A DNA stretch of 64,000 nucleotides from an uncultured delta proteobacterium (GTDB taxonomy: Bacteria; Desulfobacterota; Binatia; Bin18). Below are positions 41,358-49,088 of this stretch, piece by piece (the first letter of the stretch is position 1; each line of letters opens with the position of its first letter). Position numbers and translations under genes: made by a program. The DNA is taken from contig CAVTCR010000063.1 of assembly GCA_963733195.1 (NCBI GenBank), forward strand, positions 37,580-101,579, written 5' to 3'. The notes below the pieces were generated by a model. That model was not told the origin of the DNA, did not search any database, and worked only from the letters and a program-made list of their open reading frames with translations.

Positions 41358-41942
41358 ATGATTGCTCGCCTCACTGGTGCGCTCGAAGAAAAAACTCCCG
41401 ATCAACTGATCGTTAACGTCAATGGTGTTGGGTATCAGGTGTTCGTGTCGTTACAAACCTTCTATCGTCTTCCTGCGTTGCATGAGTCTGTCAGTTTGCA
41501 GATCCATACGCATCTTCGTGAAGATGCCTTGCTCCTCTATGGATTTCTGGAAGAGAAGGAAAAGGCGAGTTTTCTGCTGCTCAAAGGCGTGACTGGTATT
41601 GGTCCGCGTCTCGCATTGAATATCCTTTCCGGAATTCCGGTTGATGAACTCGAAAGCGCGTTACGCACAAGTGATGTCACCCGTCTGGTAGCGGTTCCCG
41701 GTGTCGGGAAGAAAACAGCCGAGCGACTCGTTGTAGAGCTGCGAGAGAAAGTCGGAGCCTTCGACAACGGACAGGGCGTTTCTGGCGGCCAGGTTCCTGT
41801 GTCTGCAGAGGCGACTTCGGCATTGGTCAATCTTGGCTATCGTCACGCCGAAGCGGAGAAAGCTGTGCGGGCTGCACTCCAGCGCGGTGCGACCTCGATA
41901 GCTGACCTCATTCGTGAGTCACTGCGGAGCTTACGGGCATGA
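41358..41942 (+). CDS. ruvA: Holliday junction branch migration protein RuvA
   Basis: [32 protein letters not shown]. Confidence 0.96.
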
Positions 41943-43012
41943 AAGCAAAGAAAAAGCCGATATTCGACCAGCCTGAAGACTTTCTCCCTGCTGCGGCAGT
42001 GGAACCAGAGACAGGTGGGGATAGGCCCGATGATCACGTTGAGGGCTCACTCCGCCCACGGTCGCTGGCTGATTACATTGGCCAGGAAGGCGTCAAACAA
42101 AATTTGCGTATCGCTATTGATGCCGCCAAGCAGCGCGGTGATGTCCTTGATCACACTTTGTTTTGCGGTCCACCAGGACTCGGCAAGACATCAATGGCCC
42201 ACATCATCGCACGCGAGATGGAGGTCAACATCCACGCGACTACTGGCCCAGTGATTGAGCGGCCTGGTGATATCGCGGCGATTCTCACGAACCTCGACAC
42301 AGGAGATGTCCTCTTTATCGACGAGATCCATCGCCTCAACCGAGTTGTTGAAGAACTTCTCTATCCAGCGATGGAAGACTTTCAGCTTGATCTTGTGGTA
42401 GGGCAGGGGCCGTCGGCACGGACAGTGAAACTTGATCTGAAACGCTTTACTTTAGTTGGGGCAACGACCAGGGCTGGGTTACTCACCTCACCACTTCGCG
42501 ATCGATTTGGTTCGACGTTTCGCCTTGATTTCTATCAAGTGGCGGATTTGGAGAAGATCATTCGCCGCTCGGCTGCGATTCTTGATTTGGCGATTGATGC
42601 GAGTGGTACTGCAGAAATTGCGCGCCGTTCTCGTGGGACGCCTCGGATTGCGAATCGTTTATTACGTCGAGTACGGGATTTTGCGCAGGTGAAAAATCAC
42701 AAGGTAGTTCATCGGGACGTTGCGCATGAAGCGTTGGCTTTACTCGAAGTCGATGAGGTTGGTTTTGACAAAATGGACCGCGCCATTCTTCTCACGATCA
42801 TCGAAAAGTTTAATGGTGGACCGGTGGGAGTAGAGACAATCGCTGCGGCCATTGGAGAAGAGAAGAGCACTGTAGAAGATGTCTATGAACCCTACCTTAT
42901 TCAAGAAGGCTACTTGCAACGGACGCCGCGTGGGCGACTGGCCACGTTGCAAGCGTACCGTCATTTCGGTATGACGCGGCCTGATGGTGGTTCTCAAGGA
43001 CAACTCTTCTAA
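41939..43012 (+). CDS. ruvB: Holliday junction branch migration helicase RuvB
   Basis: [37 protein letters not shown]. Confidence 0.97.
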
Positions 43013-43022
43013 GGAGTCCTGT

Positions 43023-43235
43023 ATGGCAGAACTGGGTAAATTTTTGATCATTGCTGGTGGGCTGTTGGTGGGTGTTGGTGTATTGTTCCTGCTCGGAGGT
43101 AAGTTGCCCTGGCTTGGGCGGTTGCCGGGCGACATCGTCGTTCAGCGGGAAAATTTTTCCTTCTACTTCCCTTTAGCCACGAGTATTCTCGTGAGCGTGG
43201 TCCTGTCGCTGCTCTTTGCCCTCCTACGTCGTTAG
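43023..43235 (+). CDS. DUF2905 family small membrane protein
   Basis: LGRLPGDI...FYFPLATSI. Confidence 0.88.
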   Translation: MAELGKFLIIAGGLLVGVGVLFLLGGKLPWLGRLPGDIVVQRENFSFYFPLATSILVSVVLSLLFALLRR

Positions 43236-43247
43236 AGAGAGACCTGG

Positions 43248-45578
43248 GTGGATAAACAATACCACGACGTGCCGGACGAACACGGACGGCGTCTGTACTG
43301 GGAAGCGGCGATCATCCTCGCGACAGCACTGGCGGTTGTGCTCCTTGCCTTTTCATTGACGCGCCTTCCGCAACTGAGTGATACGCACAATTTGGCGGGA
43401 AATGCGGTTTTCGTCCTCTTAATCAACCTCAATATTGTCCTTCTCATTCTCCTTGTTTTCCTGGTTGCCCGTAATCTCATCAAATTGTTTTATGACCGTC
43501 GCCGAAAGTTGCTAGGTGCACACCTGCGATTTCGCCTGGTCTCTGCGTTTGTCGCTATTGCCCTCTTTCCGGCTATCTTGCTTTTTCTTGTCGGTACGGC
43601 CGTGATGTCTCGTTCGCTAGAAAGTGTGTTTACGAACCAGGTCGAGAAGGCTCTCGAAGGATCGCTTGCGGTTGTTAGCACTTTTTATGATTTATTAGAA
43701 GGCGAAGCGGTCTCGCAGGCACAGACACTCGCAACGGAGATTGCACAGAACGAGTTGCTTACTCCAGAACGTCGGCAAGCACTGCAGGATTTAGTCGAGA
43801 CACGCCGATCGATGCTGCACCTCGGGCGCGTTATGGTGCTGTCGCCCGAGCGGACTGTGCTGGCGAACGCTACTATCGCGGAGCTGCAGACCCGAGAACG
43901 AAGCGGTCTTGAAGCCAGAACGTTAGATCGCGTATTCCGCCGCGAAAGCCTCCGTGAGGTCCGCTCTGCAGAGAATGGGCAGACAGAGGTGGTGTTAGGA
44001 GGAGTTCCGGTTATTGTCCAGAATGACGTTCTCGGTGCAGTCATCGTCGAGTACTTTGTGCCACGGAGTATTGCCCAGCAAAGTTCACAGGTAGTGAACG
44101 CTTTTCGCGAATATTTGCATCTCCGGATCCTCAAACATCCGATGAAGACAAACTACATTGTCACTATGTCGCTGGTGACACTTGTGGCGGTGTTCTCTGC
44201 GGTATGGTTAGGGTTATTCTTAGCAAAAAAAATGACCGTGCCCTTACAGCGCCTGGCTGCGGGGACGCGCGAGGTCGCACAGGGACATTGGACGTATCGT
44301 ATTGAAGGTGAGGACGAAGATGAGATCGGTACGCTTGTAGCGGCCTTCAACCGGATGACGGGAGAACTCCAACTCAGTCACCAAGAGCTTGAAGCACGGC
44401 GACGATACATGGAGACCGTGTTGGCAAATATTACTGCAGGGGTGGTTACATTGGATCGCCATGGGGTAGTGACCACGATGAATCCTGCGGCTGAACGTCT
44501 CCTCGGTATCATGGCTACTGAAGCAATTGGGCAAGAGTATCACGAGGTCTTTCCGCTTCCCGACTTTGACGAAGTCCGGCGCATGGTGGGTGAGTTACTG
44601 TCGGTCTCGGTCAACGGCACGAGTGACAAAGTGAGTGCGAGCCTGGGACAGATGAAGCTCAGACGAGAAGGGCACGTCATGTCATTGGTGATGACTGGAG
44701 CGTTACTAACGGATGAACAGCACGACGTTCTTGGTACAGTGTGTTTCTTTGAAGACGTGACCCAGATTGTTCGTGTCGAACGGATGGAGGCATGGCGCGA
44801 GGTGGCACGACGTATTGCGCATGAAATCAAAAATCCGTTGACGCCTATTCAACTTGCTGCCCAGCGATTGCATCGACGATTCGCACCCCAGATCACGACG
44901 AACGCTGAAGTTTTCAATGAGTGCGTAAGCAGTATCGCGCATGAAGTCGATGCTATTAAGAAACTCGTCAATGAATTTTCTACTTTTGCGCGATTGCCTA
45001 CTGCCGAGTATGCGCCTGAGAATCTCAATGTTCTCATCCAAGAAGTGATCCCGGTCTTTACTGAGGCCCACCGAGATATTGCCTTTGTCTTCTCCCCTGG
45101 CAAAGACCTTCCTATGCTCGAGGTTGACCGCGAAGGGATGAAACGCATCGTACGTAACCTCCTAGATAACGCTGTTGCCGCGTGTCATGCCGTGCAGAAT
45201 GGCCAACAACACCGAATCTCGATCAGCACGCGATTGCTCTGGTCTATCGGGATCATACAGTTAGAAGTTGCCGATTCCGGGTGTGGTATACCGCCAGAGG
45301 TGAAAGATCGTTTATTTGAACCATATTTCTCGACCAAGAAAGAAGGAACGGGCTTAGGACTCGCGATTGTGGCAACGATTGTCGCTGACCATCAAGCCTT
45401 CATTCGTGTCCGCGACAATCATCCTAAAGGGAGCCGGTTCATTATTGAACTCCCAGCTCGTCGGAAAGCCCAACGGACCCAGATCGCCAACGTGTCGTCG
45501 AGGTCGGTGTTGAATGGGACCAAAGGAAAAGGGGAAGAAGGAGAATGGTATGGAAGAGACCATTTTGGTGGTGGATGA
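43248..45578 (+). CDS. NtrY-like sensor histidine kinase (3TM, periplasmic domain, HAMP, PAS, HisKA, HATPase)
   Basis: AWREVARRIAHEIKNPLTPIQL H-box, NEFSTFARLP, NLLDNA, DSGCG, GTGLGL. Confidence 0.93.
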   Translation: MDKQYHDVPDEHGRRLYWEAAIILATALAVVLLAFSLTRLPQLSDTHNLAGNAVFVLLINLNIVLLILLVFLVARNLIKLFYDRRRKLLGAHLRFRLVSAFVAIALFPAILLFLVGTAVMSRSLESVFTNQVEKALEGSLAVVSTFYDLLEGEAVSQAQTLATEIAQNELLTPERRQALQDLVETRRSMLHLGRVMVLSPERTVLANATIAELQTRERSGLEARTLDRVFRRESLREVRSAENGQTEVVLGGVPVIVQNDVLGAVIVEYFVPRSIAQQSSQVVNAFREYLHLRILKHPMKTNYIVTMSLVTLVAVFSAVWLGLFLAKKMTVPLQRLAAGTREVAQGHWTYRIEGEDEDEIGTLVAAFNRMTGELQLSHQELEARRRYMETVLANITAGVVTLDRHGVVTTMNPAAERLLGIMATEAIGQEYHEVFPLPDFDEVRRMVGELLSVSVNGTSDKVSASLGQMKLRREGHVMSLVMTGALLTDEQHDVLGTVCFFEDVTQIVRVERMEAWREVARRIAHEIKNPLTPIQLAAQRLHRRFAPQITTNAEVFNECVSSIAHEVDAIKKLVNEFSTFARLPTAEYAPENLNVLIQEVIPVFTEAHRDIAFVFSPGKDLPMLEVDREGMKRIVRNLLDNAVAACHAVQNGQQHRISISTRLLWSIGIIQLEVADSGCGIPPEVKDRLFEPYFSTKKEGTGLGLAIVATIVADHQAFIRVRDNHPKGSRFIIELPARRKAQRTQIANVSSRSVLNGTKGKGEEGEWYGRDHFGGG

Positions 45579-46821
45579 TGAGGAGAAAATTCGCTCGACC
45601 CTACGAGGCGTATTAAGTGACGAAGGGTATCGAGTGCTCGATACCGACGGTACTCCTAATGTGTTGGCTATGGTAGCAGTACAGCGACCACGGCTCGTAC
45701 TCCTTGATATTTGGATGCCACAGGTTGATGGGATTGAATTACTCGAACGCTTGAAGGCGCAAGAGCCCGAACTCCCAGTGATTGTGATGTCGGGGCATGG
45801 CACGATTGAGACCGCCGTGCGTGCGACGAAGCTTGGCGCTGCTGATTTCATTGAGAAACCTTTCTCCTTGGAGACGCTCTTGCGTTCCGTACATCGCGCG
45901 ACTGGACGCTCGACTGCTGAGAACCTTACAGAAAATGGTGCGACAACCGTACTCGAAGAAGCCCACACGATCTCGTACCGACAGCGACAGAGACGTGCGC
46001 GAACGATCAAGCAGAGTGTCGTCATTCACGGGCATGGACTTCACTCCGGTGTGCGTACCGGGGTCATTCTCCATCCCTTGCCGCCAGGGAGCGGAATTGC
46101 GTTCAGTGCGATCTCCGCACCGGATGTGATGATCCCAGCGACGGTAGAGTATGTTGACTCAACGGGATATGCCACTAGTCTTTGTCGCGATGGGGTAACA
46201 GCCCAGACGATCGAACATCTGATGTCGGCCCTCCATTCCTACGGCCTCACCAACGTGTTGGTAAAAATGCAGGGGGAAATCCCAATTCTTGACGGGTCGG
46301 CTCTGGAGTTCTGCCAACTGCTTGAAGGTGCCGGAGTTGTCGAGCAAGCGGAGAAGATTGAACCCGTGGGTATTGATAAGACGTACCGTGTAGGTGACCC
46401 ACAGTCAGGAAAATTTTTGCAGATCGAACCTGCCAAATATTTTGCGGTGCACTATACGCTGAAATATCCAGAGCCTGTTGGATGTCAGGAGTACTCTTAT
46501 GTTCACCGTGATATGCAGAGTTACCGCGAGGAGATCGCTCCCGCGCGGACCTTTGGCTTTGTGAAAGACGTCCAGATGCTTGAGCAAATGGGACTCGCCA
46601 ATGGGGGACGGCTGAACAATTGCGTCCTCATTGGTGAACAGGGAGTGATTAACCCACCGTTACGTTTCCCTGATGAGCTCGTCCGCCATAAGATTCTGGA
46701 CTTGATGGGAGATCTCTATCTGCTCGGTCGTCCGATCCATGGCAAGGTCACAGCCAGTTGCACAGGACATACAGACAACATTGCTCTGGTCCGTGCAATT
46801 CGAGAAGGGATGAAGCTCTGA
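45550..46821 (+). CDS. lpxC: Fusion of NtrX-type response regulator receiver domain and UDP-3-O-acyl-GlcNAc deacetylase LpxC
   Basis: REC: VVDDE, LLDIWMP (Asp53), MSGHG, IEKPF. LpxC: GHGLHSG, TIEHLMSAL, EIPILDGSA, RTFGF, RHKILDLMGDL, GH. One uninterrupted frame. Confidence 0.92.
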   Translation: MEETILVVDDEEKIRSTLRGVLSDEGYRVLDTDGTPNVLAMVAVQRPRLVLLDIWMPQVDGIELLERLKAQEPELPVIVMSGHGTIETAVRATKLGAADFIEKPFSLETLLRSVHRATGRSTAENLTENGATTVLEEAHTISYRQRQRRARTIKQSVVIHGHGLHSGVRTGVILHPLPPGSGIAFSAISAPDVMIPATVEYVDSTGYATSLCRDGVTAQTIEHLMSALHSYGLTNVLVKMQGEIPILDGSALEFCQLLEGAGVVEQAEKIEPVGIDKTYRVGDPQSGKFLQIEPAKYFAVHYTLKYPEPVGCQEYSYVHRDMQSYREEIAPARTFGFVKDVQMLEQMGLANGGRLNNCVLIGEQGVINPPLRFPDELVRHKILDLMGDLYLLGRPIHGKVTASCTGHTDNIALVRAIREGMKL

Positions 46822-46891
46822 GTGCTTATCCGAATAACCAGTGAAAGGAGTTAGGTCTTGTAATTATGCACTTCAGTCAAAAGCGGTGCTT

Positions 46892-47506
46892 CTAATCGGT
46901 GACTTCTAAACGTGACCCCATGAGTTCTTCCAGCAGGCTCTTAGCCTCTTGCAAATCTTTCGTATCAAACCCTTCGGTGAACCAGTTATAGATCTCAGAT
47001 AACGTGGTGCGTGCTGCGTGGTGCTTGCCTTGTCGCTGCCACAGGCGGGCAAGGCTCACTGTCGCGCGCAACTCTAGCGACTTCGCTTGTTGTTGCGAGC
47101 AATCTCAATGGCTTTGTGAAAACATGCTTCGGCTTCGGCTGCTGGGAGTTGGGAGTTGGGATTTAGGATTTGGAATTTTTGACTTTTGCGCTTTGCCTTT
47201 TGTCTTTTGACTTTCCTGCTGAAGCGTCAGCTCGCCTTTCAGCCGATACAGCTCAGCCTCCCAGAAATGCTCCCCAGTTCTATCCACTGTAGCCAACGCC
47301 TCGGCCAGTGCAGTCAACCCTTCCTCTATCTGTCCGATTTCTCCGTACGTCTCTGCCAGGAGCGCGAGGAAGTATGACTGAAATAGCTCTGCTCCCATAG
47401 CTCGGCAGAGGGCAAGACCTTGGTGTATGCGTGCCAGCCCTTCTTTTTCCTTTCCTTGTCTGGCTAATGCCCAACCTCGTAGGACAGTCGCCCACGCCCG
47501 GCTCAT
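46892..47506 (-). pseudogene. Orphan C-terminal TPR module of a cyclase-AAA-TPR protein (copy-1 type), frameshift near 47100
   Basis: RGWALA..., [30 protein letters not shown]; no upstream cyclase or ATPase domain. Confidence 0.8.
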
Positions 47507-47724
47507 GGCAGCGAGCGGCCTAATACCTTGAGCGCTTCGCCCCGTAACAGCGCGATCGTTTCACTTAACTCCACTAGCGCCTCTAACTCTTCCCGCTCGG
47601 CGGCACTGAGTTCTCCTTCGGTGTTGCGGTCCATCAGATCTTGGAGCTTGGCATTGAGCTTGGGCGAGAAGCGGAACTCTGCGACTGAGGTCACCAGTTC
47701 CACCGGCGTGGCGATTGTCTCCAT
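47503..47724 (-). CDS. Small putative antitoxin-like protein
   Basis: RFSPKLNAKLQDLMDRNTEGELSAAEREELEALVEL; resembles small partners that precede HNH nuclease genes. Confidence 0.6.
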   Translation of the reverse strand: METIATPVELVTSVAEFRFSPKLNAKLQDLMDRNTEGELSAAEREELEALVELSETIALLRGEALKVLGRSLP

Positions 47725-47792
47725 ACGGTCTCCTCTGGATCAGGCTATTCCGAGCTTAGCTGGCTTTGGTTGAGAAGGCACCATCGAGGTCC

Positions 47793-49088
47793 TTACGGTG
47801 TCACCCGCTCTAACATGCGCGGAAACGGAATTGCCTCGCGAACGTGGTGGAGCCCACACAGCCACGAAACCATACGTTCGATGCCCATGCCAAAGCCAGC
47901 GTGCGGGACTGAGCCATATTTCCGTAGGTCGAGATACCACGAGAACGCTTCCTCTGGTAACCCATGCGCATGGATCTTTTGTTGCAGAACAGCAAGATCA
48001 TCTTCACGCTGACCGCCGCCAATGATCTCGCCGTAGCCTTCTGGTCCAAGAATATCCATGCACAAGGCGACTTTTGGATTTTCTGGGTCAGCTTTCATAT
48101 AGAAAGCTTTGTTCTCGGTCGGGTAACGATGAATGATGACTGGTCGATCGAACGATTCGGAAATGACCGTCTCATCGTCGCCACCAAAATCGGCTCCCCA
48201 TTGAATATCAATGCCCTTTTTCTGGAGTAGTTCAATCGCTTCGCCGTAGCTGATACGTGGGAAGGGCTTTTTGACGCGCTCTAATTTTGCCACGTCGCGC
48301 TCTAGGGCCGCGAGTTCTTGGCGGCGGTTGGTCAGTACGCGTTGCACAACATACTCAATGAAGTCCTCAGCAAGATTCATGTCGCCGTTAAGGTCACAGT
48401 AAGCGACTTCAGGCTCAATCATCCAGAATTCAGTCAGGTGACGGCGGGTTTTGGATTTCTCGGCACGGAACGTGGGGCCGAAGCAGTAGACTTTGCCGAA
48501 CGCCATCGCCCCAGCTTCCATATACAGCTGACCACTTTGTGTGAGGTAGACGGTATCACCAAAATAGTCGACCGGAAACAACGTGGTCGTGCCTTCGCAC
48601 GCTGCCGGAGTGAAGATCGGTGCATCAAGGAGCGTGAAGCCATTGTTATCAAAATAATCGCGGCAGGCTTTGATGATTTCACTGCGTATGCGCAAGAGTG
48701 CATGCTGGCGAGAGGAGCGTAGCCACAGATGTCGGTGGTCGAGCAGAAAGGCAACGCCGTGCTCTTTCGGAGTAATGGGATAATCGTGCGCCTCTTGTAA
48801 GATTTGCAAATCTTTCACTGATAGCTCGAACCCAAGCGGCGAACGGGTATCGGCGCGCACGATGCCGGTGACGGTGAACGAGGATTCTTGCGCGAGGTGG
48901 TCAGCAAGTTGGAACGTTTCTGGGCTGACATCTCCCTTAAAGACGACACACTGGATAGTACCGGTGCCGTCGCGGAGTTGGAGGAAATGCAGTTTGCCAC
49001 TCGCTCGCTTGTTGTACAGCCAGCCTTTCAGTGTCACTTCCTGCCCTTCATATTTGCCGATCTCGTTCACGTATACCCACTGAGGCAT
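47793..49088 (-). CDS. asnS: Asparagine--tRNA ligase
   Basis: [44 protein letters not shown]. Confidence 0.96.

Follow-up and report, generated by a model that had tools for sequence, protein, structure and literature searches.

In an uncultured delta proteobacterium (GTDB lineage Bacteria; Desulfobacterota; Binatia; Bin18), the LpxC enzyme is encoded as the C-terminal half of a fusion protein whose N-terminal half is a response regulator receiver (REC) domain. LpxC catalyses the committed step in the synthesis of lipid A and sets the flux; too little or too much is lethal, and the enzyme is a validated antibiotic target. The fusion gene lies directly downstream of a sensor histidine kinase gene in a stretch of 64,000 nucleotides (nt), hereafter the window (NCBI GenBank assembly GCA_963733195.1, contig CAVTCR010000063.1, positions 37,580 to 101,579 of the forward strand). 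In the genomes compared we observed intact domains, conserved residues, linkage of the fusion to the kinase, a single LpxC, long fused forms that retain an activator module, and synteny of the corresponding genes in unfused relatives. From these sequences it seems moderately probable that the kinase phosphorylates Asp53 of the receiver, that the phosphorylation state sets LpxC output post-translationally, and that the pair descends from a sigma-54 system located beside lpxC. The features concerned are the following (window coordinates; aa, amino acids).

43248..45578, forward strand: sensor histidine kinase, 776 aa, with an NtrY-like domain order (Pfam)
45537..45543, forward strand: Shine-Dalgarno-like GAAGGAG, within the 3' part of the kinase gene, with 6 nt between it and the ATG at 45550
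45550..46821, forward strand: REC-LpxC fusion open reading frame (ORF), 423 aa plus stop codon, frame open
45562..45891, forward strand: REC domain, residues 5-114 (Pfam), with D9, D10, D53, S81, F100 and K103 intact
45706..45708, forward strand: codon of the predicted phospho-acceptor Asp53, counted from the translation
45904..45987, forward strand: linker, residues 119-146, predicted to be disordered and differing in sequence between lineages
45988..46818, forward strand: LpxC domain, residues 147-423, with zinc ligands and catalytic residues intact

The original prediction, made from the letters of this stretch, had described one 423-aa frame in which about 30 aa of linker join a full REC domain to a full LpxC, and profile searches bear this out. 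Response_reg (Pfam PF00072) matches residues 5-114 (E 2.2e-30, 105.5 bits against a cut-off of 30.2), LpxC (PF03331) matches residues 151-417 over profile positions 2-266 of 268 (E 2.3e-84, 283.5 bits against a cut-off of 27), and the fusion passes the NCBIfam lpxC equivalog TIGR00325 (248.7 bits, cut-off 187.25). All motifs that had been named are in place, both in the receiver (the D9/D10 pair, D53 in LLDIWMP, S81 in MSGHG, K103 in EKPF) and in the enzyme (TIEHL, RTFGF, RHKILD and the GH His). In alignments with solved LpxC chains, E222, H223, H380, D384 and H407 fall on the equivalent positions; going by the LpxC literature, we take these residues to supply the three zinc ligands (His, His, Asp) as well as the Glu and His of catalysis. 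Another possible start, the ATG at 45514, would give a protein of 435 aa; the 423-aa start is preferred because the Shine-Dalgarno-like site precedes the ATG at 45550 and because the resulting length equals that of the nearest homologues.

The best receiver-type NCBIfam model for the REC domain is NtrX (NF051870), matched at 131.3 bits against a cut-off of 600 and over model positions 3-124 of 452, so that the protein lacks the full-length REC-AAA+-helix-turn-helix (HTH) layout of a true NtrX. Pfam detects neither an AAA+ nor an HTH domain in the fusion, which is therefore not a sigma-54 enhancer-binding protein (PF00158) either. The nearest solved receivers are 4d6x (E 3.6e-29) and 5m7n (E 2.6e-28), presumably Brucella NtrX receivers, with NtrC-family receivers ranking after them.

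The residues needed for phospho-signalling and for catalysis were compared across 331 fused proteins, 323 of them distinct, with 330 rows for REC. D53 and K103 are invariant (330/330 each), F/Y100 is likewise found in 330/330, D9 in 328 and D10 in 327 of the 330, and S/T81 in 326, the remaining four having Cys; in the enzyme, 329-331 of the 331 homologues retain E222, H223, H380, K381, D384, D388 and H407. The REC residues, the phospho-acceptor Asp above all, are thus not degenerate in homologues; they stay strictly conserved while overall identity spans 45-91%, and by this measure both halves of the fusion are under selection.

Such conservation bears on a sceptical view of the locus, namely that the receiver is an evolutionary leftover without a regulatory role, or that the fusion is an artefact of assembly or gene calling. 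Fusions can persist neutrally, and the organism's own assembly is a draft (6.9 Mb, 87 contigs, 93% complete). Apart from the conserved receiver, however, closed chromosomes of 3.8-5.7 Mb carry the same fusion, hundreds of independent assemblies contain it, and contigs from other studies bridge its junction, so we consider this view highly improbable. The assembly artefact was rejected on the last three grounds.

The fusion is by no means unique to this assembly. One match across REC and LpxC (query residues 1-5 to 406-423) was obtained in 139 of the 151 genomes sampled from the class, three of these matches containing an in-frame stop; the remaining class genomes gave seven split or contig-end pieces, two weak matches only and, in three cases, no match. 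One of the class genomes sampled (G282) is an unpublished genome. In a few class members (L048, L052; G259, G214, G302, G342) the fusion is found in two frames or pieces, some of them on long-read chromosomes, which may mean either frameshift errors or true pseudogenes. All of the top 120 database relatives, at 66-91% identity, carry both PF00072 and PF03331, with several located on contigs of 3.8-5.2 Mb. In species-representative genomes, a scan gave 51 loci where the match reaches into the LpxC part, closed chromosomes labelled Candidatus Binatia among them, and the ESM Atlas holds 17 named clusters of at least 50 members with the REC and LpxC domain pair. Throughout, source annotations name the fused proteins plainly LpxC or NtrX.

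At the level of the phylum, 48 of 201 genomes drawn encode an LpxC at least 45% identical to that of the window. The receiver is present at all 47 fused-type loci fetched, G158 being known from the genome search alone, and G034 adds a further fused case at 38% identity; in all other phylum genomes of the draw, LpxC is about 300 aa long and at most 43% identical. As regards the junction itself, the original prediction had pointed to positions 45900-46000 as the place where read support matters. The REC-linker-LpxC junction is indeed covered by contigs of other studies, for example X4 record 20 at 45575-46015, but this coverage is thin (Logan contigs rather than reads, depth 2-7, no single record across the whole gene). 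A 327-nt RNA-library record (X13) covers 45314-45640, which is no proof of transcription.

A histidine kinase directly precedes the fusion (ORF 43248-45578), just as the original prediction had stated. Its HAMP (324-375), PAS (388-504), HisKA (516-583) and HATPase_c (627-738) domains score above the Pfam cut-offs, NtrY_N is matched at 21.4 bits, just below the cut-off of 23.2, and a long membrane/extracytoplasmic region lies N-terminal to HAMP. The kinase stop and the fusion start overlap by 29 nt; because of this overlap and of the GAAGGAG 6 nt before the ATG, the two genes look co-transcribed and translationally coupled, and the position of this site inside the kinase 3' end by itself suggests such coupling. 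In 46 of 49 window-related loci a kinase orthologue lies directly upstream of the fusion on the same strand, the exceptions being one locus without room for a kinase and two (L045 and L047) without an adjoining one; the same arrangement recurs in six loci of the long form and one of the medium form (see below). Judging from this linkage, the upstream kinase is likely the cognate kinase of the fusion.

A full-length orthologue of the kinase, one per genome, is found in 175 of the 201 phylum genomes. Where the fusion is located elsewhere in the genome, no receiver, AAA+ or LpxC gene adjoins the kinase orthologue (18/18 fused-type genomes, L171-L188), within a check that reached about 4 kb and, at three of the 18 loci, had just 0.6-1.2 kb of downstream sequence; one of the 18 shows a weak AAA+ match 3.3 kb upstream. 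The simplest reading of these loci would be that the regulator gene was converted into the fusion and not duplicated. For the short and medium forms outside Binatia, most of which lie away from the kinase, it is on the orphan state of the kinase orthologue that the kinase-fusion linkage rests.

The original prediction had also raised the question of another lpxC in the genome; the fusion is the single LpxC match in the organism's own 93%-complete assembly. LpxA (two copies), LpxB and LpxK are encoded as well, and on this gene content the fusion serves the organism's lipid A pathway. Nothing extends C-terminally beyond the last helix of its LpxC domain. Its alignment with a 305-residue LpxC chain covers positions 3-275 of the latter, and the fusion stops six residues past this alignment and is therefore without a counterpart of the E. 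coli C-terminal tail that bears the FtsH degron. Neither the LapB zinc ribbon (PF18073) nor the YejM DUF3413 (PF11893) was found by these two Pfam models in the own assembly, PF18073 being unspecific (it matched 10 of 14 control genomes, Gram-positives included).

One might suppose from these features that phosphorylation controls the amount of LpxC and not its catalysis, with the receiver exposing or hiding a degradation signal or recruiting FtsH, Lon or Clp. According to the accessible text of one source, LpxC is under proteolytic control in E. coli and possibly, through Lon, in alphaproteobacteria (PMC12444477). With the C-terminal tail missing, and with no LapB or YejM domain detected, another turnover route would be needed, and RssB-type receivers are found among the weaker NCBIfam matches of the fusion REC. 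Yet no degron or adaptor feature was identified in the fusion, the RssB model, with its cut-off of 700, gives 93.9 bits, a match of the generic receiver kind, and the absence of LapB and YejM comes from two models in an incomplete assembly. We therefore regard control through turnover as unlikely.

The own genome yields 27 matches to the NtrX model, none of them above the cut-off and hence no true NtrX by this model. At least 14 of the 27 are full-length NtrC-family response regulators (contigs C59, C9, C16, C58, C53, C73 and others), and from these matches the genome has a large sigma-54 activator repertoire.

In an AlphaFold2 model of the fusion built from an 80-sequence alignment, both domains are confident (mean predicted local distance difference test score (pLDDT) 87.9), and residues 122-145 have a pLDDT below 50. 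The predicted template modelling score (pTM) is 0.86 despite the disordered linker. Because this exceeds the value expected for random placement, the model may place REC and LpxC confidently relative to each other, which, read from pTM alone, would fit a defined packing. A two-chain prediction of REC (1-121) and LpxC (146-423), made with no controls, gave a score of 0.24 and a mark of 0.32 and weighs neither way on binding.

A different role for the receiver would be that of a localisation device or scaffold drawing LpxC to the membrane kinase, or that of a phosphate sink, with the enzyme left unregulated in both cases. The disordered and variable linker fits localisation, the kinase is membrane-bound through its N-terminal region, and a Neisseria LapB homologue has been proposed to place LpxC at the inner membrane (PMC12444477, accessible text). 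What makes us think this quite unlikely is that 326-330 of 330 homologues keep the complete phospho-chemistry set, the switch positions S/T81 and F/Y100 among it, which goes beyond what docking on a kinase needs, and that fusion and kinase are not co-transcribed in most non-Binatia lineages.

The fused proteins fall into three forms by the length of what lies between REC and LpxC. The short form, with a linker of 20-39 aa and a total of 413-436 aa, is that of class Binatia and also of families f6, f51 and f62; the medium form has a linker of 40-69 aa (families f16, f18, f36, f55, f78). The long form, of 685-743 aa, was found in 14 of the 201 genomes (families f11, f40, f49, f58, f60, f82; loci L115-L128, e.g. 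L126:4998-7214:-), and the protein database holds 120 further long-form clusters (P0122-P0241) under source names NtrX or LpxC. Its Pfam layout is Response_reg, Sigma54_activat, AAA_lid_14, LpxC. Long forms match positions 3-452 of the 452-position NtrX model, at 282-351 bits, and after that the lpxC model above its cut-off; in the f60 long form, the NtrX match ends at position 392 and the DNA-binding end is missing. Over all long relatives, the NtrX scores are 232-351 bits, below the cut-off of 600.

The activator module of the long forms has decayed. The Walker A Gly/Gly/Gly/Lys are invariant in 133/133 sequences, but GAFTGA and the Walker B Glu are each found in 0/133, the Walker B Asp in 60/133, and Lys stands in place of the sensor II Arg in 131/133. 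The AAA+ domains of the long forms make up one clade with a stem of 0.86 and tips of 0.7-1.3, compared with about 0.3 in unfused regulators. On these residues, the long-form AAA+ module is degenerate, being without sigma-54 contact and ATPase residues. A hidden Markov model of the middle region, made from the 133 long forms, found no AAA+/HTH remnant in 197 short and medium linkers (no match better than E = 3), so that a deletion would have left no detectable trace or the linkers have since been replaced.

The long forms also invite the thought that the signal flows the other way, the LpxC domain acting as a 'trigger enzyme' that senses substrate or product and modulates receiver phosphorylation and, in the long forms, DNA binding. 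These proteins combine the NtrX C-terminal DNA-binding end (to position 452 of 452) with LpxC, as an enzyme-regulator would, and their invariant Walker A means that the middle domain may still bind nucleotide despite the lost ATPase residues. Nevertheless, the window protein and its whole class are without a DNA-binding or any other output part, and the fusion is the sole LpxC, with intact catalytic residues, so that its catalysis is certainly needed. A reversed signal flow thus appears very unlikely to us.

Phylogenetic trees set the fused proteins apart. In the LpxC tree, 65 fused sequences separate from 20 stand-alone LpxCs of the same phylum with a Shimodaira-Hasegawa-like approximate likelihood ratio test (SH-aLRT) support of 99, and with REC and LpxC concatenated, the 65 fused sequences separate from 13 unfused pairs with a support of 100. 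The concatenated tree unites the window's class in one clade (98) and the long forms in another (81).

The unfused relatives point to what came before. Both gene places are listed for 81 genomes with a stand-alone LpxC, and 34 of them have lpxC immediately upstream of the orthologous kinase gene on the same strand, with a gap of 36-3654 nt (below 1.4 kb in 33); in the other 47, the two genes are on different contigs (44) or far apart (3). We fetched 16 unfused loci, picked since their genes shared a contig (L155-L170, e.g. L155:1382-6331), and 13 of them have the order lpxC, kinase, REC-AAA+ regulator. These regulators keep GAFTGA (9/12), the Walker B DE (12/12) and the sensor II Arg (12/12), and by these residues are ordinary sigma-54 activators. 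Motifs resembling the sigma-54 -24/-12 element precede stand-alone lpxC at 8 of the 16 loci, with eight matches in 8,000 nt before lpxC versus eight in the other 247,608 nt. No such motif was found before the window's kinase gene (42700-43300). Two genomes show a double state: in G199 and G034, a stand-alone lpxC adjoins the kinase with no regulator after it (L164, L165), and each carries a second, REC-fused LpxC on another contig (L110, L106), the fused copy of G034 having diverged strongly (38% identity, long branch). Gene transfer could account for this double state, or it could be an intermediate.

The unfused gene order and motifs agree with published work on Desulfovibrio vulgaris Hildenborough, in which lpxC was the single target of DVU2934 by DNA affinity purification-chip (DAP-chip), this regulator being encoded in an operon with the kinase DVU2931; the orthologous operon of Syntrophobacter fumaroxidans has lpxC immediately upstream (Rajeev et al. 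2011, PMC3333781, as far as its accessible text goes).

Taking these lines together, we propose the following scenario. The ancestor would have possessed a kinase and a sigma-54 activator beside lpxC, driving lpxC transcription. The activator would then have been fused to the product of its own target gene, after which its AAA+ module lost the sigma-54 contact and ATPase residues; in the lineage of the window, the AAA+ and DNA-binding parts would have been deleted, moving control from the promoter to the protein. In the present-day organism, the upstream membrane kinase would phosphorylate Asp53 of the receiver, and the phosphorylation state of Asp53 would set, after translation, what the tethered LpxC delivers. 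The unphosphorylated receiver may restrain LpxC by docking on the enzyme or by holding it in an inactive oligomeric state, and phosphorylation would lift this restraint, as in the REC-esterase CheB, so that an active kinase would mean more lipid A. The sign of this regulation (phosphorylation turning LpxC on) is a guess; in the ancestor, the phosphorylated activator would have switched lpxC transcription on. A gating of LpxC by phosphorylation, as the original prediction had supposed, is compatible with every conservation and context result obtained here.

Several points weigh against this scenario. In the free trees, which are 'quick' trees, the long forms nest inside the fused clade, and by parsimony these trees imply one gain of AAA+/HTH or about four losses and, on their own, favour the gain. 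Holding the 51 short and medium forms together gives a tree 5.02 log-likelihood units above the free search, with a p-value of 0.644 in the approximately unbiased test (p-AU), which thus does not reject a single long fusion with a single later deletion; still, the single loss is restored by the constrained tree alone, for a group defined after the tree was seen. Outside the class Binatia, most short and medium forms do not adjoin the kinase. The linker is disordered and unconserved, and a loose tether fits equally well as a regulated interface. Finally, the alphaproteobacterial NtrYX system lowers lpxC transcription and lipopolysaccharide (LPS) in Rhodobacter sphaeroides and Caulobacter, the opposite sign to the one supposed here (PMC7240162, PMC12444477, accessible texts).

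Even so, we think it fairly probable that the long form came first and was then shortened by deletion, and likely that a two-component system for lpxC transcription was fused to its target's product and later shed its AAA+ and DNA-binding parts. The fusion could plausibly have come about through a tandem duplication of lpxC-kinase-regulator, which would have placed the 3' end of the regulator gene next to lpxC. The original prediction had guessed at an in-frame loss of the AAA+/HTH part between adjacent ntrX and lpxC genes. Its outline survives in the long REC-AAA+-lid-(HTH)-LpxC forms, in the single fused clade and in the constrained tree, but the unfused regulators are canonical sigma-54 activators and not NtrX proper, and the unfused gene order is lpxC-kinase-regulator and not ntrX-lpxC.

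Upstream of the two genes, a small DUF2905 membrane protein is encoded at 42984-43235 (forward strand), flanked by ruvB and the kinase gene. Downstream, two short overlapping ORFs of 133 aa (weak TPR match) and 73 aa (no family) at 47105-47724, on the reverse strand like asnS, separate the fusion from asnS and may be the remains of a larger gene; an M48 peptidase gene is located past asnS. In 41500-47800, a scan found no sigma-70 promoter-like sites, and terminator-like sites were not more frequent than in shuffled sequences; both scans are uninformative.

Among known systems, DVU2931/DVU2934 of D. vulgaris, which may be orthologous, resembles the window in having a kinase and an NtrC-family regulator tied to lpxC (PMC3333781, accessible text). 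DVU2934 is, however, a separate DNA-binding protein acting on the lpxC promoter, whereas the receiver of the window is covalently joined to LpxC and its AAA+ and DNA-binding parts are gone. With NtrY/NtrX of Alphaproteobacteria, the window shares a REC domain nearest to NtrX receivers and a kinase with the NtrY domain order, and the long fused forms share the lack of GAFTGA. Unlike the fusion, NtrX stands on its own as a REC-AAA+-HTH protein, its regulon comprises dozens of genes and its effect on lpxC is indirect; it also keeps the Walker B DE (13/14) and the sensor II Arg (14/14), both lost in the long fused forms.

CheB (REC-methylesterase), PleD and WspR (REC-GGDEF) and RpfG (REC-HD-GYP) have the same layout of REC, flexible linker and catalytic domain. 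In such a layout, phosphorylation would be expected to relieve inhibition or drive oligomerisation. The outputs of these proteins are signalling or second-messenger enzymes, whereas that of the fusion is a zinc amidase with a biosynthetic task in an essential envelope pathway. Another natural LpxC fusion, LpxC/FabZ (NF009667; matched by the window's LpxC part at 198.7 bits, cut-off 465), has a metabolic enzyme as its C-terminal partner, in contrast to the N-terminal signalling domain of the window protein. To our knowledge, every known control of LpxC acts via separate partners (FtsH/LapB/YejM, MurA) or via transcription. FtsH-LapB-YejM of E. coli and MurA-LpxC of P. aeruginosa are similar in that control falls on the LpxC protein, at the flux-setting step (PMC12444477, accessible text), but these systems use separate partners and a C-terminal degron, while in the fusion the regulator is built in and no C-terminal tail exists.

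The original prediction knew of no characterised REC-LpxC fusion, and our full-text literature searches, which did not cover subscription journals, found no paper on a receiver-LpxC or an activator-LpxC fusion either; a 2025 review on how lipid A is regulated never uses the words fusion, fused or receiver. Domain-architecture databases very probably list the REC-LpxC architecture without comment. Response regulators with enzyme outputs are already known; LpxC as such an output was not found in print.

If our reading is true, a receiver built into LpxC would be a new regulatory solution, and the fusion might bring allosteric sites of LpxC to light. A rare stepwise path is also preserved in the family, from a regulator beside its target, through fusion to the target's product and decay of the ATPase and sigma-54 functions, to deletion down to a REC-enzyme, and the family ties a kinase near-universal in the phylum to envelope homeostasis. 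This makes it relevant to LPS regulation, to LpxC as a drug target and to the evolution of signalling proteins. More broadly, and here we are speculating beyond what we would hold as probable, Binatia and several neighbouring lineages might have swapped promoter or protease control of lipid A synthesis for a direct two-component LpxC switch, which arose when a sigma-54 activator was fused to its target's product and discarded its transcription parts; a periplasm-facing kinase would then sense envelope or LPS status and, in a feedback loop closed without any transcription, tune LpxC via Asp53 within seconds.

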